Shown here: positions 1 to 56,260 of the stretch, one piece after another | How positions within the stretch are numbered: position 1 is the stretch's first letter | How the letters are laid out: each line of letters begins with the position of its first letter | Sequence record: PX583170.1 | Origin: a phage | Direction: 5' to 3' (one strand) | DNA: 56,260 nucleotides | Made by a program: the position numbers and the translations under genes | Notes under the pieces: generated by a model | The model's input: the letters and a program-made list of their open reading frames with translations, nothing else | Told to the model about the DNA's origin: nothing | Database searches by the model: none

Positions 1-135
1 CGGACTTAAAATACGGTCCCTACCCCAACTTTTTCCTACAGCCTATCGGCTTAATGATAACACCAAGTTAGGCGCTTCGCTTATGAGTCAAGGTCAAAGG
101 CAATCAGAGCACGCTGTTGTAACGAGCTAGTCTTA

Positions 136-157
136 CCATTAGTTGGTTGTGATTATG
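136..157 (+). promoter_or_regulatory. Promoter-motif copy P1 (candidate phage-RNAP promoter) upstream of the RNAP gene
   Basis: ccATTAGTTGGttgtgattatg; shares the CATTAGTTG core with 13 other sites. Confidence 0.4.
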
Positions 158-214
158 AATAGGCTACGCAAGTCTAATCCGTTTCAGTTAAATCATAATC
201 AATTGGAGACTATC

Positions 215-2329
215 ATGACTAATGAAGAATATCGTGCACTGGCTGCTGATGGCGCTCGCTTAAAAGAAGAAGGCCACGGTTGGAAAGACGTGCTTGATAC
301 GATGGACCGTTGCAACCAAATGGTTGATGAAATCACTACTGCTACACAATCCGAAACTAAAACCGAAACTAACTTGGAGACTCGCAAAATGACAACTATC
401 TCAACTCAAACTATCAAATCCGTTGTCCCTGCTATCACGGCTCTGGTATACCGTGCTAAAGAGAAACAGAACTACATGCAGCCTCAGACCTGTGCTATTG
501 CTGCTCTTGCAATCTTCAAGATGATGACCTCATTCACTCGTGATGATGTTGTCCCAGCCATTGCAATGGTTGAGCTGGCTTCTGCTTCTATTGCTGATGC
601 CAACCGTTATAACAACGATTTGAAAGCAATGCACTATGTTGACCCAGCTATCAACCTCATTGGTTTGGCTAAGCACTTTGGCTTCATTACCATGAACGAA
701 GACAAGTCATTCCAACAAACTGATACATGGGTTGAACTGGTTACAACCAAAGACACAGCAGTGCCATTCACTGAGCGTGTTACATCTGAATCTCGTCGCA
801 AGCCTTTCGTTAAAGGTGGCAAAGTTAAGCCATCCAAAACTTTGAAAGCTGCAATCGAATTCCTGCAAGATACTGAGTACCATGTGGAGACTGAGATGGT
901 TCGCATCATCCAGTCCATGCTTGAGCAACGTACCTACGGTGGTTTGCAGATGCCAGAAGCAATCCAGACTGAACTTCATGTTTGGAACAATGCTGTAGCA
1001 ATGATGAATCAGGATAAGCTGTATTCTGACTACTTTGCTGATAACCGTGGTCGCCTGTATCATGTAGCATGTGCTGGCCCTAACCCACAATCCTCTGACT
1101 TTGCTCGTTGCTTGTATTCTCACAATGTTGAGAACATCGTTAAGAAGTTTAACGAAGATGGTTCTACTACCATCGCATACAACATGTTCATGGCAGAGCT
1201 GGAAGATATTTCTGGTGGTGAATGGTGCAGTGCTAAGCGTTTAACTTATGTTGCTCAGAATCCAGCTGGTTCACTTGCTCGCATGATGAACATGCCTAAA
1301 GCTGAACGTCCTTCCAAGCCATTCACTTATGTTCGTCTGGCTCTGGATTGGTTCAAGTTTGAGACTACAGGTGAGTGCGATTCTCGTGTAGGCTTTGGCT
1401 TAGATGCTAAATGTTCTGGTACTCAATATCTGGCATTCATTGCTGGTAACATGGAAATGGCTCGTGCAACAGGTCTGGTTGATTCTGAGACTAAAGCATC
1501 TGACCCATACCAGTTATCTCTTCGTGAACTGTTGAAGTTACTCGACCGTTCTTCAATGAAGCCATCTCCTGAAATCATGGATGAGTTCTTGAATCCGAAA
1601 GCTGGTCGTAAGTTTATCAAAACTCCATACATGGCTATCCAATATGGTGGTGGTAAAGCAGCATTGACTGGTTCTTCTGACTTCATTAGCTACATGACAG
1701 AAGCTCTCCAGATTCCTATGGAGAAAGCTGAGGCATTTGCTGAACTGTGTGTAGAAGCAATCCATAACGCATTGGGTGCTAAGATTAACATGTTCATCGA
1801 GAAAGCTGCTGATGCTGCATACAATCGTTGTGTTGAACTTGGCAAAGAGTACATCACATATCGCCACACTGATGGTCAGGTTGTAATGAAGCCTTGCTTC
1901 CCATCTCGTGAAATCTGTGAGGCATTCAGCATTCGTGTTGATAGTCAAACTCGTGTTATCTTTGGTCAGATTCAGGAGAACAAGCCTTGGACCATTCGTG
2001 AGTCCAATCCAACTAAAGAAGAGTTCAAGCGTACCTTCGTTGTTAACTACATCCAAGGTATTGACGCATTGGTTGCTCGTACTGTTGCAGTTAAAGCTAA
2101 AGAAGCTGGTCTTCGTGGCTTTACTTCAATTCACGATTGTTTCCGTTGCTGCTTAGCTGATGCTCCACGTATGATGGAAGTTATTCGTGCAGCATATGTT
2201 GAAATCTTCGTAACCAACAATCAATTCGAGAATCTGTCTAAGCAACTCGGTGGCATTCAGATGTATCATGAGAACATCGTAACCGAAGAGCTTCTGATGA
2301 GCGAACATGCTTACTACTTCTGTCAATGA
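215..2329 (+). CDS. T7-like single-subunit DNA-dependent RNA polymerase (ORF opens at 143; ATG at 215 has SD ggaga)
   Basis: Motif A-like FGLDAKCSGTQYLAF (T7 DGSCSGIQHF), motif B-like KFIKTPYMAIQYGGG, motif C-like TSIHDCF (T7 HDSF). Shorter than T7 RNAP. Confidence 0.85.
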   Translation: MTNEEYRALAADGARLKEEGHGWKDVLDTMDRCNQMVDEITTATQSETKTETNLETRKMTTISTQTIKSVVPAITALVYRAKEKQNYMQPQTCAIAALAIFKMMTSFTRDDVVPAIAMVELASASIADANRYNNDLKAMHYVDPAINLIGLAKHFGFITMNEDKSFQQTDTWVELVTTKDTAVPFTERVTSESRRKPFVKGGKVKPSKTLKAAIEFLQDTEYHVETEMVRIIQSMLEQRTYGGLQMPEAIQTELHVWNNAVAMMNQDKLYSDYFADNRGRLYHVACAGPNPQSSDFARCLYSHNVENIVKKFNEDGSTTIAYNMFMAELEDISGGEWCSAKRLTYVAQNPAGSLARMMNMPKAERPSKPFTYVRLALDWFKFETTGECDSRVGFGLDAKCSGTQYLAFIAGNMEMARATGLVDSETKASDPYQLSLRELLKLLDRSSMKPSPEIMDEFLNPKAGRKFIKTPYMAIQYGGGKAALTGSSDFISYMTEALQIPMEKAEAFAELCVEAIHNALGAKINMFIEKAADAAYNRCVELGKEYITYRHTDGQVVMKPCFPSREICEAFSIRVDSQTRVIFGQIQENKPWTIRESNPTKEEFKRTFVVNYIQGIDALVARTVAVKAKEAGLRGFTSIHDCFRCCLADAPRMMEVIRAAYVEIFVTNNQFENLSKQLGGIQMYHENIVTEELLMSEHAYYFCQ

Positions 2330-2370
2330 TATTAATTGGTCAAGGATGACCACAAACTTGGAGACTTATA

Positions 2371-2571
2371 ATGAACATTCAACAAATCAATCAAATCGAA
2401 AACTGTTTCAATCCTCATCATACCTGTGACATGAGCAACTTATCTCGTCCTACAGTGGAGGAGACTAAAGACTTCTTAGAATTGTTAGCAGAATATAAAC
2501 AAGAATCGCATGTACTATTGCATGCATATTTGCACAATTCTGGATACTTTGATACAGAAATACCGTTCTGA
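2371..2571 (+). CDS. Hypothetical small protein (66 aa)
   Basis: ATG with SD ggaga 8 nt upstream; followed by a terminator. Confidence 0.5.
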   Translation: MNIQQINQIENCFNPHHTCDMSNLSRPTVEETKDFLELLAEYKQESHVLLHAYLHNSGYFDTEIPF

Positions 2572-2576
2572 TATTT

Positions 2577-2603
2577 GGGAGCTTCGGCTCCCTTTTCTTG
2601 TTT
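2577..2603 (+). terminator. Rho-independent terminator
   Basis: GGGAGC-ttcg-GCTCCC perfect 6-bp stem with UUCG loop, then ttttcttgttt. Confidence 0.75.
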
Positions 2604-2623
2604 CAACTAAGTCGCATAACTCA

Positions 2624-2645
2624 GCATTAGTTGTATGTGAATCTA
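2624..2645 (+). promoter_or_regulatory. Promoter-motif copy P2
   Basis: gCATTAGTTGtATGTGAATcta, directly after the terminator and 22 nt before the next gene. Confidence 0.5.
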
Positions 2646-2666
2646 ATAAACCATTTGGAGCATATC

Positions 2667-2834
2667 ATGTTTACAGTGACCTTAGTAACCTATTATGGCA
2701 AGCAAGTTTGTGAGAAGTTTGAGACTTTGAAAGAAGCCCGTGAGTTTGCAGCTCGTGAAGAGAATATTTATGTAGACTGTGAAATCACAGATGGTGATAA
2801 GCAGTATGAAGTTGTAGCTCCTACACTCAACTGA
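2667..2834 (+). CDS. Hypothetical small protein (55 aa; ORF opens at 2631)
   Basis: ATG at 2667 preceded by tttggag SD; the earlier TTG start lies inside the promoter motif. Confidence 0.45.
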   Translation: MFTVTLVTYYGKQVCEKFETLKEAREFAAREENIYVDCEITDGDKQYEVVAPTLN

Positions 2835-2848
2835 TTCCCAATATTCGG

Positions 2849-2858
2849 ACAATATTGT
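2849..2858. promoter_or_regulatory. Perfect 10-bp palindrome ACAATATTGT (operator-like)
   Basis: Self-complementary; flanked by aatattcgg and gcatgtaatattgt. Confidence 0.35.
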
Positions 2859-2884
2859 TGCATGTAATATTGTCCCGATATTCG

Positions 2885-2906
2885 ACATTAGTTGGATATG
2901 AAGTAA
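2885..2906 (+). promoter_or_regulatory. Promoter-motif copy P3
   Basis: aCATTAGTTGGATATGAAgtaa; followed by hairpin CGGAG-aaata-CTCCG at 2913..2927; no gene for ~1 kb downstream. Confidence 0.45.
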
Positions 2907-3277
2907 AGAATACGGAGAAATACTCCGCATGACATATTGAATCATTCTAGAAACATTCAGCATGTCAGCTTTGAGTTACAGTGTTGTAATGATGTGGCAA
3001 TCATTGAACTCCCTGGGTAGGCCACCTACAGTTCCAGCAACCATGACACAGAGTAGGAATATCTATCCGAAACTTGTACTTCACCTATAGCATGTCTATT
3101 AGCTACAGTATTGTTCCTTCTCCTATTATCAAGGCCCACCCACAAGCCGGGAGATAACTTTGACAAGACTGGAACTTTTGGACATGCTTCTTTCTTTCTA
3201 CAAGAATTTGAAAGAAGAGAAGAAGTCGGACTAAGCCTCTCGTTTTCACGCAGAAGCCGCCCCGATTTTGAGCAACA

Positions 3278-3294
3278 AATATTGTGACAATATT
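3278..3294. promoter_or_regulatory. 17-bp inverted repeat AATATTGT-G-ACAATATT (operator-like)
   Basis: 8-bp arms are exact reverse complements; 51 bp beyond the repeat end at 3227. Confidence 0.4.
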
Positions 3295-3525
3295 GTCGCA
3301 GTATGGCATGTAAATATTGCTACAAATTGGCATGTTGGAATGTGGCAGAATTGTTAGAGGACTAATCACCTCGAAGATACAATCGTCTACCAATCTGGCA
3401 TGTTAATTTTGTAACAGTATTTGTGCCAATTTCGCATGTAATAGTTGTATCAGTAATGACCCAATATTCTTGCAACCCGCATGAATACTGGCTTCCAGCC
3501 AAGCGAAGGCTTTATCATCGCATGT

Positions 3526-3542
3526 AATATTGTGACAATATT
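3526..3542. promoter_or_regulatory. Second exact copy of AATATTGT-G-ACAATATT
   Basis: Identical 17-mer to 3278..3294. Confidence 0.4.
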
Positions 3543-3716
3543 GGGATAAAACCCTTTATTTAATTAGTTTTATTATGCTGTACATGGTCGGTTTTCCGTA
3601 CCTGCTTGCTCCAATCTTAATGTGCCAAATACGTTAAGTATGGGAGTAAACCTACGTGAACGTAGTGAACAATGACGCATGTTTAATTGTGACAAAATTC
3701 GTCTATTTGGCAGATG

Positions 3717-3735
3717 AATTAGTTGCAATTAAGCA
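3717..3735 (+). promoter_or_regulatory. Promoter-motif variant P4
   Basis: aATTAGTTGcAATtaagca; core retained, 3' half divergent. Confidence 0.3.
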
Positions 3736-3745
3736 TGTCCATTTA

Positions 3746-3767
3746 TCATTAGTTGCATGTGAATAAG
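3746..3767 (+). promoter_or_regulatory. Promoter-motif copy P5
   Basis: tCATTAGTTGcATGTGAATaag; ~190 nt upstream of the first gene of the unique region. Confidence 0.5.
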
Positions 3768-3955
3768 ACCAAATCTCTGTAAACTCTGCTGAAATTGTGT
3801 GACAGATTTTAGAGAGATTATGTCTCCAAGCTAATCATTGTAGTTTTTCGGCACTTGCTGTGTCACATACTCCCTACAACTTTAAGGTGGATTAAGGTAA
3901 GACAAGACCTCCACAATCGTTCTGTAGGGAGTTTTCCTTAACTTAGGAGAATAAA

Positions 3956-4174
3956 ATGACTCGTTTTAAAGATTTGGAAGATGGTGCAATCTTCTTTACG
4001 CGTGGTGGAGAACATCTGCAAAAAGTTTTGGAAGATGATGTTAATGTAAATGCTGTATTCGTTGGTGATTCTAACATTGGTGTTTTATTAAATGACAATG
4101 AGAGAACTTTTACAGAGGAGGAGTTTAAAGAAATCTCAGCCTCTGATTTAGTTCAAGAGCCAATTGAAGTTTAA
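3956..4174 (+). CDS. Hypothetical protein (72 aa)
   Basis: ATG with SD aggaga. Confidence 0.5.
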   Translation: MTRFKDLEDGAIFFTRGGEHLQKVLEDDVNVNAVFVGDSNIGVLLNDNERTFTEEEFKEISASDLVQEPIEV

Positions 4175-4189
4175 TACATAGGAGTAAAC

Positions 4190-4378
4190 ATGGACTTCAT
4201 CGTCTACTTTAAGTTAAATGGTGTGGAGCAAAGATTGTACTTCAATTCTTTACTTCGTTTGCAACAGTGGGCGGAGAAGTTTGTTGGGTATGACTTTGAA
4301 TACATTAACGCATGTACACCTGACGAACATGAAGAAATCGTGTTCAGTTCTTTAAATCAAATTCTGGAGGCCAAGTGA
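4190..4378 (+). CDS. Hypothetical protein (62 aa)
   Basis: ATG with SD aggag. Confidence 0.5.
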   Translation: MDFIVYFKLNGVEQRLYFNSLLRLQQWAEKFVGYDFEYINACTPDEHEEIVFSSLNQILEAK

Positions 4379-4539
4379 AGAAGCTCAAGTATATGACCAA
4401 AACTGTGTCATACATGGCAGCTTACGGTGCTTCAAAGAGACGTGCGAAGAAACTTGCAAAAGCTGCAAACCCTCGTATGCCAGCACGTAAGGTGGCTCAA
4501 ATCATCAATTCAGTATTCGACATATGGAGTATGAAATGA
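4375..4539 (+). CDS. Hypothetical small basic protein (54 aa, GTG start overlapping upstream stop)
   Basis: GTGA start/stop overlap with SD ggagg; Lys/Arg-rich; not in ORF track (<60 aa). Confidence 0.3.
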   Translation: MKKLKYMTKTVSYMAAYGASKRRAKKLAKAANPRMPARKVAQIINSVFDIWSMK

Positions 4540-4709
4540 ACGACCAGCAATTCAACACATTCATGCAGCAGATTAATCATCAAGAACTGATGGAAGCCAT
4601 CAAGGGCAAGAAGCCGGTTGAACGTCAATATCGTAAAATTGATAATTATATGCCAACAATCATTGCATGTGTTGGTGTTGCTATTGTTCTCTACTTCCTG
4701 GTGAAATAA
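4524..4709 (+). CDS. Hypothetical small membrane protein (61 aa)
   Basis: C-terminal hydrophobic stretch PTIIACVGVAIVLYFLV. Confidence 0.45.
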   Translation: MEYEMNDQQFNTFMQQINHQELMEAIKGKKPVERQYRKIDNYMPTIIACVGVAIVLYFLVK

Positions 4710-4802
4710 TGGACATTGTTAAGAAATTAGTATTCTGTATCGTAATGTTCCCTCTGGTGCTGCTCGTTGTGGGCAGCTTCTTAATCTGTTAATAGGTATC
4801 AC

Positions 4803-5096
4803 ATGTCAATTCAGAAATTCCTTGATGTAGCAAATGTTGCTAAGAATTCTATTCCAAGCAATCCCGATATTCTTACCTCAATGCGTGTTGATGTTGCACT
4901 TCTGGCTTTAGCTGGTGAGCACATCAATGCGCTTGAGAAGCAAGTTTCAGATTGCAAAAGTGAAATAACCACTTTGCGTGACCAGATTGCCAGCCAAGAA
5001 GCGGCATATTCTGACCTCATGGATGCGAAAAACCATTTACAGCAACGGCTTGCAGTTGCGCTTGAAGAAATAGACAGACTAACACTAACCAAATAA
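4803..5096 (+). CDS. Hypothetical protein (97 aa)
   Basis: ORF in the unidirectional early gene array. Confidence 0.45.
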   Translation: MSIQKFLDVANVAKNSIPSNPDILTSMRVDVALLALAGEHINALEKQVSDCKSEITTLRDQIASQEAAYSDLMDAKNHLQQRLAVALEEIDRLTLTK

Positions 5097-5111
5097 CAAT
5101 TGGGAGTTATT

Positions 5112-5375
5112 ATGGCTACTAAGACCGGAATGATGATTGTCCCAAGCCGTAATAACTCTTTAAGCGGCTTTACACCATATAAAATCTATGAAGTTATTTC
5201 TGGCACTGGTGAAGCAAACCTGTCAGAAGTTGCTTTGAAGTTGGGCCGTATGGTCCACTCCGAAATCTCCTGTAACGTAGTTGATGATGAAGGTAAAATC
5301 CGTTTTGTAACAATGGATTTCTTTCGTGAATTTAACCTCAAATCTGAGATAGGTGTTTTATATCATGAAATTTAA
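5112..5375 (+). CDS. Hypothetical protein (87 aa; ORF opens at TTG 5100)
   Basis: ATG at 5112 with SD gggag. Confidence 0.45.
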   Translation: MATKTGMMIVPSRNNSLSGFTPYKIYEVISGTGEANLSEVALKLGRMVHSEISCNVVDDEGKIRFVTMDFFREFNLKSEIGVLYHEI

Positions 5376-5592
5376 ATGTGTTGCTTCAACCAAAGATTAT
5401 GTTCCAGTTGGCTTCATCGTTGAAGGTGAAGCTATCTCACCTTTGGAATTTAAAGTGACTAAATCTGCTGAGAATGTTTCTCCAGCATTTCGTAAAGGTG
5501 CTGTAGTGCCTATGAATGGTGCATTCTGGACATGGCAGCGTGACCATGAAGCAGAATTTGCAGATATTTGTGAACAAGGTTTATTGCAATGA
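5365..5592 (+). CDS. Hypothetical protein, paralog of next gene
   Basis: Shares KFKCV-ST, VG-IEGE-I and WTW with the 5589..5819 product. Confidence 0.45.
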   Translation: MKFKCVASTKDYVPVGFIVEGEAISPLEFKVTKSAENVSPAFRKGAVVPMNGAFWTWQRDHEAEFADICEQGLLQ

Positions 5593-5819
5593 CAAAGTTT
5601 AAATGTGTGAAATCAACCTCTTCATCTGAGCACTCTCCGAAAGTTGGAGATGTGATTGAGGGAGAACTTATCCAAGTACACGGAGGTCGTGGATTCCGCC
5701 ACAGAGTGCTTATTTCTAAAGATAGTGACCGAAAAATGCCAGACGGTAAGCCATACTTTTCACTTGGTGAAACAGTTCCCTTAGAAGGTAGTGTTTGGAC
5801 TTGGAAAGAGGTTAAATAA
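5589..5819 (+). CDS. Hypothetical protein, paralog of previous gene
   Basis: MTKFKCVKST...VGDVIEGELI...WTW. Confidence 0.45.
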   Translation: MTKFKCVKSTSSSEHSPKVGDVIEGELIQVHGGRGFRHRVLISKDSDRKMPDGKPYFSLGETVPLEGSVWTWKEVK

Positions 5820-5882
5820 TTTCCTCAACCACTTTTGTAATGAGAGTGGTTGCTGAATATTATTAATCAACTTGGAGCATTT

Positions 5883-6173
5883 ATGAAACAACGTACTCGT
5901 TTACAGCGTGACCCCGCCACAGGCCGCTTGTTACCAGCATATTTGAAAGTTGGTGACTTAGTTTACACTCGTGACTTTGCTTTTGACATTTGCCCAAGCA
6001 AAGCATATAAAGTTCTTGCCACCAGCTTGTCTGGACCTAAAGTAATATTTGGTTCACTTGAGCCAATTCAGCTGACCGGAACCCAATTCGTCATTAAGGA
6101 TGAATCTGGCTGTAACCGAATCTTTAGCCTTGAAGGTGGCCTATCCAAATGGGAGAAGATTAAGCGTGGGTAA
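5883..6173 (+). CDS. Hypothetical protein (ORF opens at 5850)
   Basis: ATG at 5883 with SD ttggag; upstream 8-bp-stem hairpin at 5826..5852. Confidence 0.45.
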   Translation: MKQRTRLQRDPATGRLLPAYLKVGDLVYTRDFAFDICPSKAYKVLATSLSGPKVIFGSLEPIQLTGTQFVIKDESGCNRIFSLEGGLSKWEKIKRG

Positions 6174-26419: not shown

Positions 26420-26605
26420 ATGCGCACAATACAATGTCCTAACTGCCACTATGAAATTGCAGAAGATGATTTCATAACGCAGCAATGTCCTATCTGTGAT
26501 TCATATATGCCACTAAACCGCCTGTATTTAAAGGCCGATTCTGGTTTAGGCAGCATCATTCGCATCAATCCCGTGCAAACTCAGCCATTAGTGGATTGTG
26601 ATTAA
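26420..26605 (+). CDS. Small zinc-ribbon protein (61 aa)
   Basis: CPNC-x17-CPIC. Confidence 0.45.
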   Translation: MRTIQCPNCHYEIAEDDFITQQCPICDSYMPLNRLYLKADSGLGSIIRINPVQTQPLVDCD

Positions 26606-28643
26606 AAACAAAGAGAACGAATCAATGTCAAAGACTGATGACCTCGGACCGGAGTTTAATGATACAGTAGCCTCGTATCTTGCCAAGCACTACGGTGACG
26701 TATTAAAAGTCTCAAGAGAAAGATTCTGTATTCTATCTTTGCCATTGCTCCGTCGATATATTTCAGAAAATACTGCAATAGTTGACAGCTATGAAGAACA
26801 AATTCAAGCAGAGTTAGAAGGCCAGGGTCTTGAAAACGATGCTGTATTGCGTTCCGTTTTCAGAGCACAACTTGAGCGTCTTCGCTCTGGCGACAAGAAA
26901 GACTCGACTGCCTATGCAGATGAGTTGAAGAAAGGTATTCAAGCAGGTGTTACTGACCGTGTTGCAGGTTCCACATTAGAGGAGCCAAACTCGGAGCATG
27001 ATAACACCGAGGAACTTGTAGACAAGATTCTGCATGACCCACACAATGTGGACCCAACTGTAATCCCTGCCAAGGTTGCAGAGCGTGTTCGCAAAATCTT
27101 GATGAAAAGTTTCGAAGCCTTTGGTAAATGGCAGTTCCATATTCAGATGGGATTTCCATTTCAAGCACAAGACTTTCACGATGTAATATTCAGTGTTGGT
27201 CAAAAGGTTGTTGATGGTGAGATTGACCGCTTAATAGTGACCATTCCTCCACGACACTCTAAGACTCAGCTCATGAGTATTGCATTGCCCTTGTATTCAT
27301 TTTGCCACAATGAATCAAGCCATAACATTATCACCTCGTATGCAGAAGACGTTGTTCTTGAATCGAGTGGCTACATCCGTGCTGTAATGATGGACCCACT
27401 ATTCCAACGCATATTCCCTAAGGTGAGAATCGACCCTAACAAACGTTCTCTTGAACGCTGGGGTACAACCAAAGCTGGAGTTATGCACGCAGTACCTACT
27501 GGTGGTAAGCTAACTGGTAAAGGTGCTGGACTTCTTGTTGCAAAATACTCCGGCTGTTTCGTGGTGGATGACGTTATCAAACCAAAAGATGCCTACTCTG
27601 ACACAGTTCGAGCAGAAATCAACGACAGATTTGATAACACCTTTATGTCCCGTCTTGCCAACGATGGTTGCATAACTGATTCGTACGGAAACCAAATCAA
27701 GTGTGCCCGTACACCAATGGTTATTATCATGCAGCGAGTCCATGACCAGGATTTAGTTGGTTACATACTCCGTGGCGGCTCTTCCGACAAATACCATTAT
27801 CTCAATATCCCAGCGATTATTGAGAAAGGAGTTGGAAGTGCTGAATGGTATGATAAGTTAATCAAGAAGCAGAACTACACTCATGCTATTCCCATTCTGT
27901 ATAATTTGAACAGGAAGGAAGAGAAGTCTGCATTATGGCCTTCACGTAAGAGTTTAGAATCTCTGGAGGCAATGAAAGAGTCTAACCCATACACGTACAA
28001 TTCACAGTATGCTGGCGACCCATCTGCACAAGGCCACGGCCTTATCAAAGAAGATTGGTGGCAAGAGTATGAACCAGACGTTTTCGACAGAAGTCGCATA
28101 GTCAGAAGTTTTATTACAGCGGATACGGCATCAACTGCCAAATCTTATTCTGATTATTCGGTCCTTAAGCATTGGGGCGTGACTAAAGAGCGTGATGTTT
28201 ATTGCTTAGATATTATGCTCGGTAAGTTTGAAACTCCAGAACTCAAGACTGCTATCATCGACTTCTGGAACAAATGCAACAAGTTGGATTTGAAGTGTGT
28301 AGGTTGTATTCCTCGTGCACTGTACATGGAAGACAAGTCTGCTGGACAATTCTTGAACCAACAATTTATTAGAGATGGGAGTGTCCGAGTTTTACCGCTG
28401 CCTCGTGACGGCATTAATGGTAATGACAAGGTAACTCGATTCCTTAACGCAATCCCATATTTCTCGCAAAAGAGAATATTCTTCCCCGCTGGTCATGAAC
28501 ACATTGACCATGTTAGACGTGAAATACTTGGATTCACTTCTTTGGGTAGTGGTACTGGACACGACGATTGCGTCGATAACGTTTCAGATATGGTTGCAAT
28601 CGAATTCTCTGGCCCAAGTGCCAACTACTCCGCATGGATGTAA
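26598..28643 (+). CDS. Terminase large subunit
   Basis: Deviant Walker A PPRHSKT (compare T4 gp17 SRQLGKT), Walker B CFVVDDV, C-terminal Asp motifs ITADTAS and HDDCVDNVSDM. Confidence 0.65.
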   Translation: MIKNKENESMSKTDDLGPEFNDTVASYLAKHYGDVLKVSRERFCILSLPLLRRYISENTAIVDSYEEQIQAELEGQGLENDAVLRSVFRAQLERLRSGDKKDSTAYADELKKGIQAGVTDRVAGSTLEEPNSEHDNTEELVDKILHDPHNVDPTVIPAKVAERVRKILMKSFEAFGKWQFHIQMGFPFQAQDFHDVIFSVGQKVVDGEIDRLIVTIPPRHSKTQLMSIALPLYSFCHNESSHNIITSYAEDVVLESSGYIRAVMMDPLFQRIFPKVRIDPNKRSLERWGTTKAGVMHAVPTGGKLTGKGAGLLVAKYSGCFVVDDVIKPKDAYSDTVRAEINDRFDNTFMSRLANDGCITDSYGNQIKCARTPMVIIMQRVHDQDLVGYILRGGSSDKYHYLNIPAIIEKGVGSAEWYDKLIKKQNYTHAIPILYNLNRKEEKSALWPSRKSLESLEAMKESNPYTYNSQYAGDPSAQGHGLIKEDWWQEYEPDVFDRSRIVRSFITADTASTAKSYSDYSVLKHWGVTKERDVYCLDIMLGKFETPELKTAIIDFWNKCNKLDLKCVGCIPRALYMEDKSAGQFLNQQFIRDGSVRVLPLPRDGINGNDKVTRFLNAIPYFSQKRIFFPAGHEHIDHVRREILGFTSLGSGTGHDDCVDNVSDMVAIEFSGPSANYSAWM

Positions 28644-28857: not shown

Positions 28858-30466
28858 ATGACTTCCAAGAAGAAAAACAATCTCTCTGTTAAAGTTGCAG
28901 ATGGGTTAGAAAACCTTGTAACGGGGTTGGGCGGTCAGGCAGATAAGTCCACTTTTAACCAGTGGACTTTCTCAAACAAGAACGCGAACTATCGCGAACT
29001 TATGAACCGCTTCCGTGAGGACTGGGTTGCACAGAAAGTGTGTACCGTCATTCCTCAAGATATGACGCGTAAGTGGCGGCATATTGATACCGAAGAAGGA
29101 CGCAAAGCGGATAAGAAACTTCGTATTCGTAAGCTGTTCCGTGAGGCGTATCAATGGGCCAGGTTGTATGGTACTTCGTTTGTTCTGCTCGACCGCGAAC
29201 TTATGAACCGCTTCCGTGAGGACTGGGTTGCACAGAAAGTGTGTACCGTCATTCCTCAAGATATGACGCGTAAGTGGCGGCATATTGATACCGAAGAAGG
29301 ACGCAAAGCGGATAAGAAACTTCGTATTCGTAAGCTGTTCCGTGACTCAAGATATGACGCGTAAGTGGCGGCATATTGATACCGAAGAAGGACGCAAAGC
29401 GGATAAGAAACTTCGTATTCGTAAGCTGTTCCGTGAGGCGTATCAATGGGCCAGGTTGTATGGTACTTCGTTTGTTCTGCTCGACCTAAAAGGTACGGGC
29501 AAACTTGATACACCATTGCGACTGGATAACTTGAAGACTGGATGTATTAAATCCATGAGAGTTATTGACCGCTCACGCTTATTTGCCGCAGGGACTATGG
29601 TTCTGGACCCTTTGAGTCCTCACTATGGTTTGCCAGAGTATTACACTTTGGCTGGGTATCCCGGCTATATCCACTACACTCGTTTCCTTCGGTTCGAGGG
29701 TACTGAACTGCCGCTGTTCGAATTCCAACGCAACATGTGGTATTCTGATTCGGTACTTATTCCACTGCTGAAAACGATTGACCAATTCTACACAACTGCC
29801 GCTGCTGCTGCCAGCCTTGCCCAAGAAGCCACTATTGATGTGGTAACTGTTGAAGGCTTACAATCTCTGCTTACATCACCGGAAGGTGAAGCTGCTGTGA
29901 TGAAGCGCTTCAAACTCATGAAGCTGGCAAAGAGTATTTATAACGTCTTAATTCTCGACAATACGGAGAAGTATGACACCAAGTCAATTGCACTATCTGG
30001 TGTGAAAGATTTGATTTGGGAATACTTGAAGATAGTTGCTGCCGCAGTTGGTATTCCGGCTACACGTTTCCTTTCTGCATCTCCAGACGGTATGAATGCT
30101 ACGGGCGAATCTGACCTCGTAAACTATATCGACTTGTTGACTGGCTTGCAGACTTCTGTGTTCGACCCTCGTTTAGATGTGGTAGACAAGATTGTCCAGG
30201 CGCACTTTGGCATTGAAGAATATAACTACGAATGGTTAGATATCTTCCCTGAATCCAATGTTGAGAAAGCGAAGCGAGCTAAAGATTTGGCATTTGCTGT
30301 TGACCTGCTGGTTAACAACGGTACTATTACTACCGAAGTTGCAAACGAAGTCATGTTCCATTCGGGCGTGTTCGGAACTTGTGACCTTGGCAAACCAAAT
30401 CCTAATCCTCCTAACATCCAAAAGGGTAACGCAAGTGAAGCAAAACCAAAACCTGGTTCAGCTTAA
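28858..30466 (+). pseudogene. Putative portal gene split into two ORFs (28858..29364 and 29285..30466) by a scrambled tandem duplication
   Basis: Removing 29194..29485 (292 bp) gives one continuous 438-codon ORF; portal call is by position after TerL only. Confidence 0.5.
28993..29485. repeat. Scrambled tandem duplication: full 201-bp unit, then two partial copies
   Basis: Unit 28993..29193; copy 29194..29345 matches unit bases 1-152; copy 29346..29485 matches unit bases 62-201. Confidence 0.9.
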
Positions 30467-31982: not shown

Positions 31983-32557
31983 CGCCACCTCCAGCTCCTA
32001 CAGTATCTGCTGTTGCAGGGGCTGTAACTGCGGACGCATCTGCCTCTGATGCAACTGTAACTGTAGACAAACTGTTTAAGTTTGAGAACTCTGCGGCAAC
32101 AGATTATAACTTCGCTGTTACACCTCCCGTGACTGGTGTTTCTGTGGCGGCAAACGGCACTGTGACTGTACTCAGTGCAACGACTACAGCCACTTCTGCG
32201 ACAATCAAGGCAACAAATAAAACAGAGTCTGGCGTAACTGCATCCAAACAGATTACGATTAAGCCTAAGCCTCCTGCACCTACGGTGTCTGCTGTAGATG
32301 GAGTTGTAACGGCTGATGCGTCTTCTACTGATGCCACTGTAACTGTGGACAAACTGTTTAAGTTTGGTAACTCTACAGCAACAGACTACACCTACGCTAT
32401 TACGCCTCCTGTGACTGGCGTTTCTGTGGCTGCAAATGGTACTGTAACCGTCTTAAATGAGACAACTACCGATACCTCTGCCACGGCTAAGGCAACAAAC
32501 AAAACAACCTCCAGCGTGACTGCAACTAAAGAGATTGCTATTACGCCGAAGTCTTAA
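31976..32557 (+). CDS. Two tandem Ig-like (Big_2-like) domains in the -1 frame, reachable only by frameshifting
   Basis: No ATG/GTG/TTG between 31964 and 32128 in this frame; repeat unit PPAPTVSAV...VTGVSVAANGTVTVL...KATNKT occurs twice. Confidence 0.5.
   Translation, partial: AVTPPPAPTVSAVAGAVTADASASDATVTVDKLFKFENSAATDYNFAVTPPVTGVSVAANGTVTVLSATTTATSATIKATNKTESGVTASKQITIKPKPPAPTVSAVDGVVTADASSTDATVTVDKLFKFGNSTATDYTYAITPPVTGVSVAANGTVTVLNETTTDTSATAKATNKTTSSVTATKEIAITPKS
31988..32554. repeat. Diverged tandem duplication, 2 x 282 bp, encoding the two Ig-like domains
   Basis: Protein repeats start at 31988 and 32270; ~80% nt identity by eye. Confidence 0.7.
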
Positions 32558-52683: not shown

Positions 52684-52701
52684 CAATATTGCTACAATAT
52701 T
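52684..52701. promoter_or_regulatory. Near-palindromic CAATATTG-ct-ACAATATT element related to the leader palindromes
   Basis: Lies in an AT-rich tract with poly-T runs and three ACGAGACT(C)-like repeats at 52907..52970. Confidence 0.35.
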
Positions 52702-53168
52702 AAGAGTAATATTAGGAATGCGTAAAGTTCAAAACCAAATGGTACATGGTCGGTCAACTGTACCTCCTTCGGAGAAGGTACCTGGATAGAAATTCGTTCA
52801 TGGTCGGTCAGCTGTATCTAGCCGAAATTTGTTCGAACAGTTGTCTGACTATGAAATAAATTTTTTTTTATAATTTTTTTTTTATTTTTAAATATTGCTA
52901 CAGAATTAATGAGACTAGAATTCGTAACAAAGCTACGAGACTCGAATTGTTTCAATATTAACGAGACTCAATCTGTGACAATATTATAATTTTTATTTTT
53001 GGGCCAGCGGGGAGGGGAAGCCCAACGTCCTATCGGACTTAAAATACGGTCCCTACCCCAACTTTTTCCTACAGCCTATCGGCTTAATGATAACACCAAG
53101 TTAGGCGCTTCGCTTATGAGTCAAGGTCAAAGGCAATCAGAGCACGCTGTTGTAACGAGCTAGTCTTA

Positions 53169-53190
53169 CCATTAGTTGGTTGTGATTATG
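53169..53190 (+). promoter_or_regulatory. Promoter-motif copy P1 (right repeat copy)
   Basis: Identical to 136..157. Confidence 0.4.
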
Positions 53191-53247
53191 AATAGGCTAC
53201 GCAAGTCTAATCCGTTTCAGTTAAATCATAATCAATTGGAGACTATC

Positions 53248-55362
53248 ATGACTAATGAAGAATATCGTGCACTGGCTGCTGATGGCGCTCGCTTAAAAGA
53301 AGAAGGCCACGGTTGGAAAGACGTGCTTGATACGATGGACCGTTGCAACCAAATGGTTGATGAAATCACTACTGCTACACAATCCGAAACTAAAACCGAA
53401 ACTAACTTGGAGACTCGCAAAATGACAACTATCTCAACTCAAACTATCAAATCCGTTGTCCCTGCTATCACGGCTCTGGTATACCGTGCTAAAGAGAAAC
53501 AGAACTACATGCAGCCTCAGACCTGTGCTATTGCTGCTCTTGCAATCTTCAAGATGATGACCTCATTCACTCGTGATGATGTTGTCCCAGCCATTGCAAT
53601 GGTTGAGCTGGCTTCTGCTTCTATTGCTGATGCCAACCGTTATAACAACGATTTGAAAGCAATGCACTATGTTGACCCAGCTATCAACCTCATTGGTTTG
53701 GCTAAGCACTTTGGCTTCATTACCATGAACGAAGACAAGTCATTCCAACAAACTGATACATGGGTTGAACTGGTTACAACCAAAGACACAGCAGTGCCAT
53801 TCACTGAGCGTGTTACATCTGAATCTCGTCGCAAGCCTTTCGTTAAAGGTGGCAAAGTTAAGCCATCCAAAACTTTGAAAGCTGCAATCGAATTCCTGCA
53901 AGATACTGAGTACCATGTGGAGACTGAGATGGTTCGCATCATCCAGTCCATGCTTGAGCAACGTACCTACGGTGGTTTGCAGATGCCAGAAGCAATCCAG
54001 ACTGAACTTCATGTTTGGAACAATGCTGTAGCAATGATGAATCAGGATAAGCTGTATTCTGACTACTTTGCTGATAACCGTGGTCGCCTGTATCATGTAG
54101 CATGTGCTGGCCCTAACCCACAATCCTCTGACTTTGCTCGTTGCTTGTATTCTCACAATGTTGAGAACATCGTTAAGAAGTTTAACGAAGATGGTTCTAC
54201 TACCATCGCATACAACATGTTCATGGCAGAGCTGGAAGATATTTCTGGTGGTGAATGGTGCAGTGCTAAGCGTTTAACTTATGTTGCTCAGAATCCAGCT
54301 GGTTCACTTGCTCGCATGATGAACATGCCTAAAGCTGAACGTCCTTCCAAGCCATTCACTTATGTTCGTCTGGCTCTGGATTGGTTCAAGTTTGAGACTA
54401 CAGGTGAGTGCGATTCTCGTGTAGGCTTTGGCTTAGATGCTAAATGTTCTGGTACTCAATATCTGGCATTCATTGCTGGTAACATGGAAATGGCTCGTGC
54501 AACAGGTCTGGTTGATTCTGAGACTAAAGCATCTGACCCATACCAGTTATCTCTTCGTGAACTGTTGAAGTTACTCGACCGTTCTTCAATGAAGCCATCT
54601 CCTGAAATCATGGATGAGTTCTTGAATCCGAAAGCTGGTCGTAAGTTTATCAAAACTCCATACATGGCTATCCAATATGGTGGTGGTAAAGCAGCATTGA
54701 CTGGTTCTTCTGACTTCATTAGCTACATGACAGAAGCTCTCCAGATTCCTATGGAGAAAGCTGAGGCATTTGCTGAACTGTGTGTAGAAGCAATCCATAA
54801 CGCATTGGGTGCTAAGATTAACATGTTCATCGAGAAAGCTGCTGATGCTGCATACAATCGTTGTGTTGAACTTGGCAAAGAGTACATCACATATCGCCAC
54901 ACTGATGGTCAGGTTGTAATGAAGCCTTGCTTCCCATCTCGTGAAATCTGTGAGGCATTCAGCATTCGTGTTGATAGTCAAACTCGTGTTATCTTTGGTC
55001 AGATTCAGGAGAACAAGCCTTGGACCATTCGTGAGTCCAATCCAACTAAAGAAGAGTTCAAGCGTACCTTCGTTGTTAACTACATCCAAGGTATTGACGC
55101 ATTGGTTGCTCGTACTGTTGCAGTTAAAGCTAAAGAAGCTGGTCTTCGTGGCTTTACTTCAATTCACGATTGTTTCCGTTGCTGCTTAGCTGATGCTCCA
55201 CGTATGATGGAAGTTATTCGTGCAGCATATGTTGAAATCTTCGTAACCAACAATCAATTCGAGAATCTGTCTAAGCAACTCGGTGGCATTCAGATGTATC
55301 ATGAGAACATCGTAACCGAAGAGCTTCTGATGAGCGAACATGCTTACTACTTCTGTCAATGA
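53248..55362 (+). CDS. T7-like single-subunit RNA polymerase, second copy
   Basis: Protein identical to 215..2329. Confidence 0.85.
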   Translation: MTNEEYRALAADGARLKEEGHGWKDVLDTMDRCNQMVDEITTATQSETKTETNLETRKMTTISTQTIKSVVPAITALVYRAKEKQNYMQPQTCAIAALAIFKMMTSFTRDDVVPAIAMVELASASIADANRYNNDLKAMHYVDPAINLIGLAKHFGFITMNEDKSFQQTDTWVELVTTKDTAVPFTERVTSESRRKPFVKGGKVKPSKTLKAAIEFLQDTEYHVETEMVRIIQSMLEQRTYGGLQMPEAIQTELHVWNNAVAMMNQDKLYSDYFADNRGRLYHVACAGPNPQSSDFARCLYSHNVENIVKKFNEDGSTTIAYNMFMAELEDISGGEWCSAKRLTYVAQNPAGSLARMMNMPKAERPSKPFTYVRLALDWFKFETTGECDSRVGFGLDAKCSGTQYLAFIAGNMEMARATGLVDSETKASDPYQLSLRELLKLLDRSSMKPSPEIMDEFLNPKAGRKFIKTPYMAIQYGGGKAALTGSSDFISYMTEALQIPMEKAEAFAELCVEAIHNALGAKINMFIEKAADAAYNRCVELGKEYITYRHTDGQVVMKPCFPSREICEAFSIRVDSQTRVIFGQIQENKPWTIRESNPTKEEFKRTFVVNYIQGIDALVARTVAVKAKEAGLRGFTSIHDCFRCCLADAPRMMEVIRAAYVEIFVTNNQFENLSKQLGGIQMYHENIVTEELLMSEHAYYFCQ

Positions 55363-55403
55363 TATTAATTGGTCAAGGATGACCACAAACTTGGAGACTT
55401 ATA

Positions 55404-55604
55404 ATGAACATTCAACAAATCAATCAAATCGAAAACTGTTTCAATCCTCATCATACCTGTGACATGAGCAACTTATCTCGTCCTACAGTGGAGGAGACTA
55501 AAGACTTCTTAGAATTGTTAGCAGAATATAAACAAGAATCGCATGTACTATTGCATGCATATTTGCACAATTCTGGATACTTTGATACAGAAATACCGTT
55601 CTGA
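55404..55604 (+). CDS. Hypothetical small protein, second copy
   Basis: Identical to 2371..2571. Confidence 0.5.
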   Translation: MNIQQINQIENCFNPHHTCDMSNLSRPTVEETKDFLELLAEYKQESHVLLHAYLHNSGYFDTEIPF

Positions 55605-55609
55605 TATTT

Positions 55610-55636
55610 GGGAGCTTCGGCTCCCTTTTCTTGTTT
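55610..55636 (+). terminator. Rho-independent terminator, second copy
   Basis: Identical to 2577..2603. Confidence 0.75.
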
Positions 55637-55656
55637 CAACTAAGTCGCATAACTCA

Positions 55657-55678
55657 GCATTAGTTGTATGTGAATCTA
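55657..55678 (+). promoter_or_regulatory. Promoter-motif copy P2 (right repeat copy)
   Basis: Identical to 2624..2645. Confidence 0.5.
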
Positions 55679-55699
55679 ATAAACCATTTGGAGCATATC

Positions 55700-55867
55700 A
55701 TGTTTACAGTGACCTTAGTAACCTATTATGGCAAGCAAGTTTGTGAGAAGTTTGAGACTTTGAAAGAAGCCCGTGAGTTTGCAGCTCGTGAAGAGAATAT
55801 TTATGTAGACTGTGAAATCACAGATGGTGATAAGCAGTATGAAGTTGTAGCTCCTACACTCAACTGA
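55700..55867 (+). CDS. Hypothetical small protein, second copy
   Basis: Identical to 2667..2834. Confidence 0.45.
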   Translation: MFTVTLVTYYGKQVCEKFETLKEAREFAAREENIYVDCEITDGDKQYEVVAPTLN

Positions 55868-55917
55868 TTCCCAATATTCGGACAATATTGTTGCATGTAA
55901 TATTGTCCCGATATTCG

Positions 55918-55939
55918 ACATTAGTTGGATATGAAGTAA
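55918..55939 (+). promoter_or_regulatory. Promoter-motif copy P3 (right repeat copy)
   Basis: Identical to 2885..2906. Confidence 0.45.
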
Positions 55940-56260
55940 AGAATACGGAGAAATACTCCGCATGACATATTGAATCATTCTAGAAACATTCAGCATGTCA
56001 GCTTTGAGTTACAGTGTTGTAATGATGTGGCAATCATTGAACTCCCTGGGTAGGCCACCTACAGTTCCAGCAACCATGACACAGAGTAGGAATATCTATC
56101 CGAAACTTGTACTTCACCTATAGCATGTCTATTAGCTACAGTATTGTTCCTTCTCCTATTATCAAGGCCCACCCACAAGCCGGGAGATAACTTTGACAAG
56201 ACTGGAACTTTTGGACATGCTTCTTTCTTTCTACAAGAATTTGAAAGAAGAGAAGAAGTC

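Follow-up and report, generated by a model that had tools for sequence, protein, structure and literature searches.

The 56,260-bp phage sequence analysed here (the window) begins and ends with the same 3.2 kb, which raises the question of whether this duplication, and with it a second RNA polymerase gene, reflects the physical ends of the virion DNA or the way in which the record was put together. Direct comparison and self-BLAST showed that positions 1..3227 and 53034..56260 (both on the + strand) are identical, with 0 mismatches in 3,227 bases, bearing out the exact end-to-end repeat described in a first-pass annotation of the sequence. The repeat cannot be extended, as T at 53033 differs from C at 56260, and the composition profile of positions 1..6000 is smooth across the repeat boundary, with no break. 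The window shares ~90–95% nucleotide identity with Carltongylesvirus genomes (Bp7, ST32, JL1 and Mangalitsa), and its polymerase matches PF00940 and phrog_414; the best match in the phage collection searched, from which the window genome itself is absent, is 94–95% identical. These matches place the window among the phiEcoM-GJ1-like E. coli myophages (genus Carltongylesvirus, family Chaseviridae). In our reading it is very probably a complete linear virion genome, deposited with both copies of a 3,227-bp direct terminal repeat. The long, polymerase-bearing repeat is real, but it is already known for close relatives.

The repeat is occupied mainly by the gene for a single-subunit RNA polymerase of 704 aa (215..2329, second copy 53248..55362, + strand; PF00940, 5e-19; phrog_414, 9e-98). 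Its open reading frame extends from 143 to 2329, with the probable start at an ATG at 215 behind GGAG, and the resulting length agrees with the Mangalitsa annotation. The protein is 96–99% identical to the polymerases of relatives, and its gene lies entirely inside 1..3227, as it also lies fully within the repeat in Mangalitsa, Myduc, 4HA13, Y2, PM1 and ZPAH14. Two small genes on the + strand with no function assigned follow: one of 66 aa (2371..2571; phrog_20790), also annotated in Mangalitsa, JL1, flopper, PYps23T and 4HA13, and one of 55 aa (2667..2834; phrog_32102, 2e-37; equivalent to Mangalitsa_003), absent from some relatives. Between them is a predicted intrinsic terminator, the hairpin GGGAGCTTCGGCTCCC followed by a T-run (2577..2592, + strand; folding z = −4.6). 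Beyond the second small gene begins a non-coding leader (2835..3955, + strand) that spans the right repeat boundary, contains many AATATTGNNNCAATATT palindromes and GCATGT boxes, and holds no gene in the Mangalitsa annotation. The contents proposed earlier (RNA polymerase gene, two small genes, one terminator and three promoter motifs per copy, with a 1.1-kb non-coding leader at the right boundary) were all recovered. With the polymerase gene inside the repeat, each virion would carry two copies of that gene, of the small genes, of the terminator and of the promoters. The second polymerase gene is a repeat copy and not a paralogue, which matters for correct annotation: a linear genome with a 3.2-kb repeat and a true unit length of 53,033 bases. 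An Rfam scan of 1..4200 returned just two sub-threshold microRNA matches, which are meaningless.

Long terminal repeats of ~3 kb that include the polymerase gene are a published trait of the Chaseviridae (ICTV profile), and this match supports the proposal that the duplication is a genuine direct terminal repeat encoding the polymerase. PhageTerm gave 3,234-bp repeats for Mangalitsa (1..3234, homologous to the left copy of the window), a predicted 3,202-bp repeat for Myduc, whose paper places the polymerase gene inside it, and a 3,120-bp repeat for 4HA13. Terminal repeats of ~2.6 kb are reported for Y2 and PM1, and those of PYps23T were shown by restriction mapping, ligation-PCR and direct sequencing. 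Exact terminal duplications are also present in deposited records (Y2, 2,608 bp; PM1, 2,665; JL1, 2,995; PYps23T, 2,339; ZPAH14, 3,373), and the 3,227 bp of the window fall within this family range of ~2.3–3.4 kb; two polymerase copies occur in about 10 of the 109 family records. The repeats of Mangalitsa, Myduc, 4HA13, Y2, PM1 and JL1 occupy the same position on the genome map as that of the window and share its content, with the polymerase gene first, then a small conserved gene, a terminator and phage-promoter motifs. They also share a left site CCTAT^CGG and a right site GWC^GGAC (^ marks the cut), with the right end in the leader before the early genes, and the length of the window repeat differs from theirs solely through insertions and deletions within the repeat. 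The window therefore adds another genome with ends at the conserved cut sites of the family. The experimental ends of PYps23T lie 147 and ~325 bases inside these sites, where they may fall in promoter motifs. Another difference between the window and its relatives is an odd 293-base exact re-duplication in the portal gene (28858..30466), probably an assembly error, which indicates that the assembly of the record is not flawless.

The left cut site, where the unique right end joins the repeat, is the palindrome GTCC-TAT^C-GGAC (53027..53038). It is nearly invariant among 13 relatives; in PM1 and Myduc the site reads CTCCC-TATC-GGGAG, so that both arms have changed and the palindrome has been kept. 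The published termini of relatives lie 0–5 bases from this cut point: window and JL1 are cut at tat^CGGAC and Myduc at the same base (ccctat^CGGGAG, PhageTerm), while the cut is 2 bases later in Y2 and PM1 and 5 later in Mangalitsa and apparently in 4HA13. The window thus has the conserved left site CCTAT^CGG(A/G) upstream of the polymerase gene. A second palindromic box, AGCC-TATC-GGCT, is found 46 bases inside the repeat (40..51; also 53073..53084) and is conserved in all aligned relatives; beyond the palindromic boxes, CCTATCGG has no further occurrence in the window. The G-rich stretch reported to precede the right copy is present as GGGCCAGCGGGGAGGGGAAGCCC (53001..53023, + strand), just before the left cut site, and a purine or G-rich tract is found at the equivalent place in Y2, PM1, Myduc and Aeromonas phage ZPAH14. 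A hairpin role for this G-rich stem was dropped, as it is no more stable when folded than shuffled sequence (z = +0.8), and ATCTGTG before the left cut was rejected as a T7-type class II pause signal, being unconserved in phiEcoM-GJ1 and JL1. A scan of IMG/VR with the 14-mer AAATACGGTCCCTA for contigs ending at the left cut yielded no independent evidence of ends; its matches were mostly chance, and the 11 genuine relatives among them came either from GenBank isolates or from permuted contigs.

The right cut site, AGTC^GGACT (3224..3232), falls in the same alignment column in JL1, Y2 and PM1, and Myduc has the motif GAC^GGACAA; the cut itself reads GTC^ggac in the window and JL1 and GAC^ggac in Myduc. 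In the window, as in the family, the conserved right site GWC^GRAC lies in the non-coding leader, ~45 bases after TGGAACTTTTGG. Just before this boundary is the imperfect inverted repeat noted in the first-pass annotation (3187..3222), composed of a pyrimidine tract (CTTCTTTCTTTC, 3187..3198), an 11-base loop and a purine tract (GAAAGAAGAGAAG, 3210..3222). It exists, though its folding is modest (−7.8 kcal/mol, z = −2.2); its arms are invariant within the genus and its loop is variable.

From what is known of other phages with exact terminal repeats, we infer by analogy that replication would generate concatemers with one repeat copy per 53-kb unit, which the terminase would cut at two fixed sequences: CCTAT^CGGAC, within the palindrome GTCC-TATC-GGAC, on the left and AAGTC^GGACT, 3.2 kb downstream, on the right. 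The segment between the cuts would be copied and would come to be present at both ends of every packaged molecule, and in the next infection the repeat would let molecules recombine or anneal end to end. The expected cutting enzyme is the large terminase subunit (26598..28643, + strand; Terminase_6C as its only Pfam match), whose homologue in Mangalitsa is annotated as a terminase large subunit similar to the T1 terminase. The short sequences at the left (T^CGGACT) and right (TC^GGACT) cuts are related. Together with the left palindrome, kept by two-sided changes across genera, these related cut sequences may provide a concrete recognition model for the generation of a long exact repeat by a T1-like terminase.

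The T1-like terminase raises the alternative of pac-site headful packaging, in which a fixed left pac cut would be followed by a right end set by head capacity, giving ~6% redundancy and limited permutation, and the deposited "repeat" would be the mean redundancy of the first headful. Terminases of this type are usually linked to headful packaging, and the likeness to T1 extends to the portal and head proteins. The terminal redundancy of T1 is close to 5.7%, the value for the window (3,227/56,260 bases). PhageTerm called headful packaging for Loessnervirus Fifi44 and terminal repeats for Mangalitsa, Myduc and 4HA13; phiEcoM-GJ1 was at first proposed to be circularly permuted. A headful cut, however, would drift with genome length, and the right boundary is constant: the short sequence GWC^GRAC marks it in JL1, Myduc, PM1 and the window, and in Y2 it occupies the same alignment column, although these genomes differ in length and their repeats range from 2,608 to 3,227 bp. 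Relatives' records give indirect evidence, from five genera with differing repeat lengths, of a right end defined by sequence (one motif or one alignment column) rather than variable. A right boundary at a fixed sequence, with repeats of 2,608–3,234 bp and differing unit lengths, fits a site-specific and not a headful cut, and we therefore regard headful packaging as improbable.

The record itself could also mislead. The duplication might be a 3.2-kb overlap that remained when a circular or concatemeric assembly was linearised at an arbitrary position, a worry raised in the first-pass annotation, since the repeat boundaries are the window ends, and the complete identity of the copies is what an overlap would give; the portal gene supplies another suspicious exact duplication in the same record. 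Short-read assemblers, however, typically leave overlaps of k-mer size and not of 3 kb. Moreover, the overlap has the length of the family repeat, and its boundaries coincide exactly with those of JL1 and, to the base, with the read-called termini of Myduc, and lie within 2–6 bases of those of Y2, PM1, Mangalitsa and 4HA13. If start and overlap length were arbitrary, the chance of both boundaries falling within 6 bases would be ~(13/53,033)^2. Boundaries at homologous termini thus make an arbitrary wrap-around very unlikely, and the independently determined termini of relatives remove most of that worry; the physical ends of the window phage are placed by homology to relatives. A further alternative is that the genome was opened at the conventional start of the family and a second copy was appended by homology to Mangalitsa or JL1. 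The boundaries are indeed identical to those of the JL1 record, but the sequence just after the right cut differs from Mangalitsa, so that placing the boundary there took judgement or data. We consider this origin unlikely, and it would leave the expected family biology unchanged. A complete genome with true terminal repeats accordingly remains our preferred reading.

The two polymerase copies may not be equivalent. The phage promoter motif ATTAGTTGNNTRTGA has 13 matches in the whole window, all on the + strand, compared to 0.21 expected. Three are in the repeat, at 138, 2626 and 2887: a putative phage-polymerase promoter upstream of the polymerase gene (138..152; also 53171..53185), the same as the "putative phage promoter" of the phiEcoM-GJ1 record, and two further copies (2626..2640 and 2887..2901). 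A reading of ATTAGTTG..TGTGA as a sigma-70 promoter was rejected, as the −10/−35 box is not consistent across copies. A sigma-70-like promoter, TTAACG-N18-TATTAT (52958..52987, + strand), homologous to the "putative host sigma70 promoter" of phiEcoM-GJ1, lies 46 bases outside the repeat, and a second such site, CTGACT-N18-TATAAT (52845..52874, + strand), has 10/12 matches. No sigma-70-like promoter was found in the 214 bases upstream of the left polymerase copy. The region thus has sigma-70-like promoters only a short way beyond the repeat, where they precede the right-hand copy alone. Since the left cut separates the gene from the host-type promoters at 52845 and 52958, host polymerase may be able to read only the right-terminal copy of linear virion DNA at the start of infection, whereas the left-terminal copy, with only the phage-type promoter at 138, may be activated by the phage enzyme. 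The earlier suggestion that the first DNA to enter the cell encodes the polymerase holds by geometry, because the gene is present at both ends, but its functional weight is doubtful given a left copy with no sigma-70-like promoter. If true, non-equivalent copies would speak against the suggestion, made in the literature, that DNA enters left end first with the help of transcription, as in T7. The joint reading, with non-equivalent polymerase copies and one recognition model for both terminase cuts, is tentative, and we give it less than even chances. Small new points are the palindrome at the cut site, the exclusion of the host promoter from the repeat and the disagreement with the PYps23T ends; none overturns current understanding, and they could direct bench work on the formation of exact long repeats by a T1-like terminase and on the polymerase copy that starts infection.

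The arrangement can be placed among other phage systems. T1 resembles the window in its large terminase, portal and head proteins and in a redundancy of ~6%, but here the right end is fixed by sequence in several genera, unlike a headful cut. T5 (~10 kb) and SPO1 (~13 kb) have exact kilobase-scale repeats that duplicate the genes of earliest infection, a likeness to the window. Their repeats are much larger, contain many host-takeover genes and are not known to carry an RNA polymerase gene, and their terminases and virions are presumably unrelated to those of the window. The T7-like phages (Autographiviridae) share with the window exact repeats with sequence-defined ends, a related single-subunit RNA polymerase, the location of all genes on a single strand and phage-specific promoters scattered along the genome. 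T7 repeats are ~160–250 bp and without genes, whereas the window repeat is 3,227 bp with three genes, in place of a gene-free repeat of a few hundred bases. The T7 repeat does not include the polymerase gene, which follows host promoters at the left end of the genome; in the window, the host-type promoters are found at the right-hand end of the unique region and are not part of the repeat.

The duplication of the ends proposed in the first-pass annotation is real in the sequence: a direct comparison of 1..3227 with 53034..56260 gave 0 mismatches, and a whole-window self-comparison turned up no further long repeats apart from a local re-duplication within the portal gene and a single diverged tandem pair. 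Its account of the contents also held, since the RNA polymerase gene, two small genes, one terminator and three promoter motifs were all located in each copy. In left-copy coordinates, the RNA polymerase ORF (143..2329) matches PF00940 and phrog_414 and likely starts at the ATG at 215, behind GGAG, giving 704 aa as in the annotation of the related phage Mangalitsa. This start codon is uncertain because the first 58 codons (215..388) are matched in only part of the relatives (Bp10, 2KOFFS, SKA49, Mangalitsa, TH23, TH33); in the others, both the match and the annotation begin at ATG 389. The small genes (2371..2571 and 2667..2834) belong to phage protein families of unknown function, the terminator hairpin lies at 2577..2592 (z = -4.6), and the promoter motif ATTAGTTGNNTRTGA occurs at 138, 2626 and 2887. 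The inverted repeat described near 3227 is present (3187..3198 and 3210..3222), with modest stability only (z = -2.2), as are the G-rich bases ahead of the right copy (53001..53023); the proposed 1.1-kb non-coding leader corresponds to 2835..3955, where the careful Mangalitsa annotation has no gene.

The repeat and the following 20 kb are 90-95% identical to ~40 Escherichia phages of Carltongylesvirus (Chaseviridae, phiEcoM-GJ1 group), with remoter matches in Erwinia, Yersinia, Pectobacterium, Pantoea and Proteus phages. No record in the collection searched was closer than ~95%, and therefore this genome is absent from that collection. PP952070.1, recorded as 'Staphylococcus phage Pel53' with Staphylococcus hyicus as host, is also a Carltongylesvirus genome, with ~89% identity over 20 kb to the present E. 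coli phage; its host label looks doubtful. The content and meaning of the repeat are already published for close relatives. Repeats of 3,234 bp (Mangalitsa, predicted by PhageTerm), 3,202 bp (Myduc) and 3,120 bp (4HA13) have been reported; the Myduc paper explicitly places a T7-like polymerase gene inside the repeat and speculates on T7-like DNA entry, so that the first-pass idea of a polymerase-bearing repeat entering early is in print. Terminal repeats were demonstrated for PYps23T with restriction mapping, ligation-PCR and direct sequencing, in a paper that also cites lengths of ~2.6 kb for those of Y2 and PM1. Among deposited records, the ends are exactly duplicated over 2,608 bp (Y2), 2,665 bp (PM1), 2,995 bp (JL1), 2,339 bp (PYps23T) and 3,373 bp (Aeromonas phage ZPAH14), and a protein search with the polymerase found 109 family records, ~10 with two gene copies. 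The modest additions made here, partly inferred, are the anatomy of the cut sites and an asymmetry of promoters.

The first-pass annotation had weighed a true repeat against a wrap-around, in which a circular assembly is opened at a random point with an arbitrary overlap. The left junction, ...CCCAACGTCCTAT|CGGACTTAAAATACGGTCCC (53033/53034), is cut as in JL1; in Myduc, where reads were used to call the ends, it is CCCTAT|CGGGAG, and the cut falls two bases later in Y2 and PM1 and five bases later in Mangalitsa and apparently 4HA13. The right junction, ...GAAGAAGTC|GGACTAAG (3227/3228), is identical in JL1, reads GGTGAC|GGACAA in Myduc, occupies the same alignment column in Y2 and PM1, and is called 4-5 bases off in Mangalitsa and 4HA13. 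Under random opening with arbitrary overlap, the chance of both boundaries falling <=6 bases from family sites is roughly (13/53,033)^2. Because both do so, a wrap-around is very unlikely, and these positions are the strongest evidence to be had without reads. The ends of the record may have been placed by the depositor through homology rather than measurement. The duplication is almost certainly the genuine terminal repeat typical of Chaseviridae.

T1-like headful packaging from a pac site could also give redundant ends. In its favour, the terminase would be T1-like, as its homologue is annotated in Mangalitsa, and the redundancy of 5.7% is similar to that of T1; PhageTerm also called Fifi44 as headful, and the phiEcoM-GJ1 genome was initially regarded as circularly permuted. 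Against it, the right end lies at one short sequence in five genera with repeats of 2,608 to 3,234 bp and varying genome lengths, whereas the position of a headful cut would shift as genome length changes. We therefore regard headful packaging as improbable. A palindrome, GTCC-TATC-GGAC (53027..53038), spans the left cut, which falls in its spacer (TAT|C); its counterpart in PM1 and Myduc is CTCCC-TATC-GGGAG, with both arms changed and symmetry kept. Another box, AGCC-TATC-GGCT, is located 46 bases into the repeat, and the 8-mer CCTATCGG has no further occurrence in the window. In Carltongylesvirus the 7-mer TCGGACT is found at both cuts (left T|CGGACT, right TC|GGACT), a match within two bases of register with chance odds of ~3 in 10,000, the relatives not being independent; cut sites of more distant genera have just CGG in common. 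Purine-rich tracts precede both cuts. These features fit a terminase that would cut sequence-specifically at two sites, the intervening 3.2 kb being duplicated. The published 2,339-bp repeat of PYps23T starts and stops within two copies of a promoter-like motif, ATTAGTTGGA|YGTGAA (3725..3745 in L004 and 2329..2349 in L006, both PYps23T sequences), 147 and ~325 bases inward of the cut sites conserved in the family. PYps23T has those conserved sites as well; either the ends of this phage truly differ or the repeated motif misled the mapping.

The motif ATTAGTTGNNTRTGA has 13 hits in the window against 0.21 expected, at 10 distinct sites (138, 2626, 2887, 3748, 6726, 7323, 13616, 21558, 26587 and 41670), all on the + strand and all preceding genes or gene blocks. 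It is annotated as 'putative phage promoter' in the phiEcoM-GJ1 record; the ICTV profile describes the promoters of Chaseviridae as not identified. That record also annotates one host sigma-70 promoter, whose homologue here (TTAACG-N18-TATTAT, 52958..52987) stops 46 bases short of the repeat; another sigma-70-like site lies at 52845..52874, and none was found on the coding strand of 1..214. Since these sites sit just outside the repeat, we infer that on linear virion DNA a host-type promoter would precede the right-hand polymerase copy only, leaving the left-hand copy with the phage-type motif only. Such an asymmetry would weaken the hypothesis of T7-like entry driven by left-end transcription, and may be irrelevant if injection is quickly followed by recombination between the ends.

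Several other repeats were observed. Near-palindromic 17-mers, AATATTGNNNCAATATT, occur 13 times against 0.45 expected, clustered in the non-coding regions around the repeat boundaries (2840..3542 and 52685..52907) and in many cases linked to GCATGT boxes; they resemble operators or origin-type repeats. The non-coding region after nrdB holds two copies of CATGGTCGGTCA(A/G)CTGTA (52737..52765 and 52791..52819), 54 bases apart. The portal gene (28858..30466) reads as two overlapping ORFs (28858..29364 and 29285..30466) owing to 293 extra bases (29194..29486) that repeat nearby sequence exactly (28993-29144 = 29194-29345; 29054-29194 = 29346-29486). The Mangalitsa portal is a single 1,320-base ORF and the insert is absent in 45/45 relatives; an assembly error or a defective variant is the probable explanation. 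Among the head genes, a tandem duplication of 282 bases, diverged to 77% identity, spans 31988..32551.
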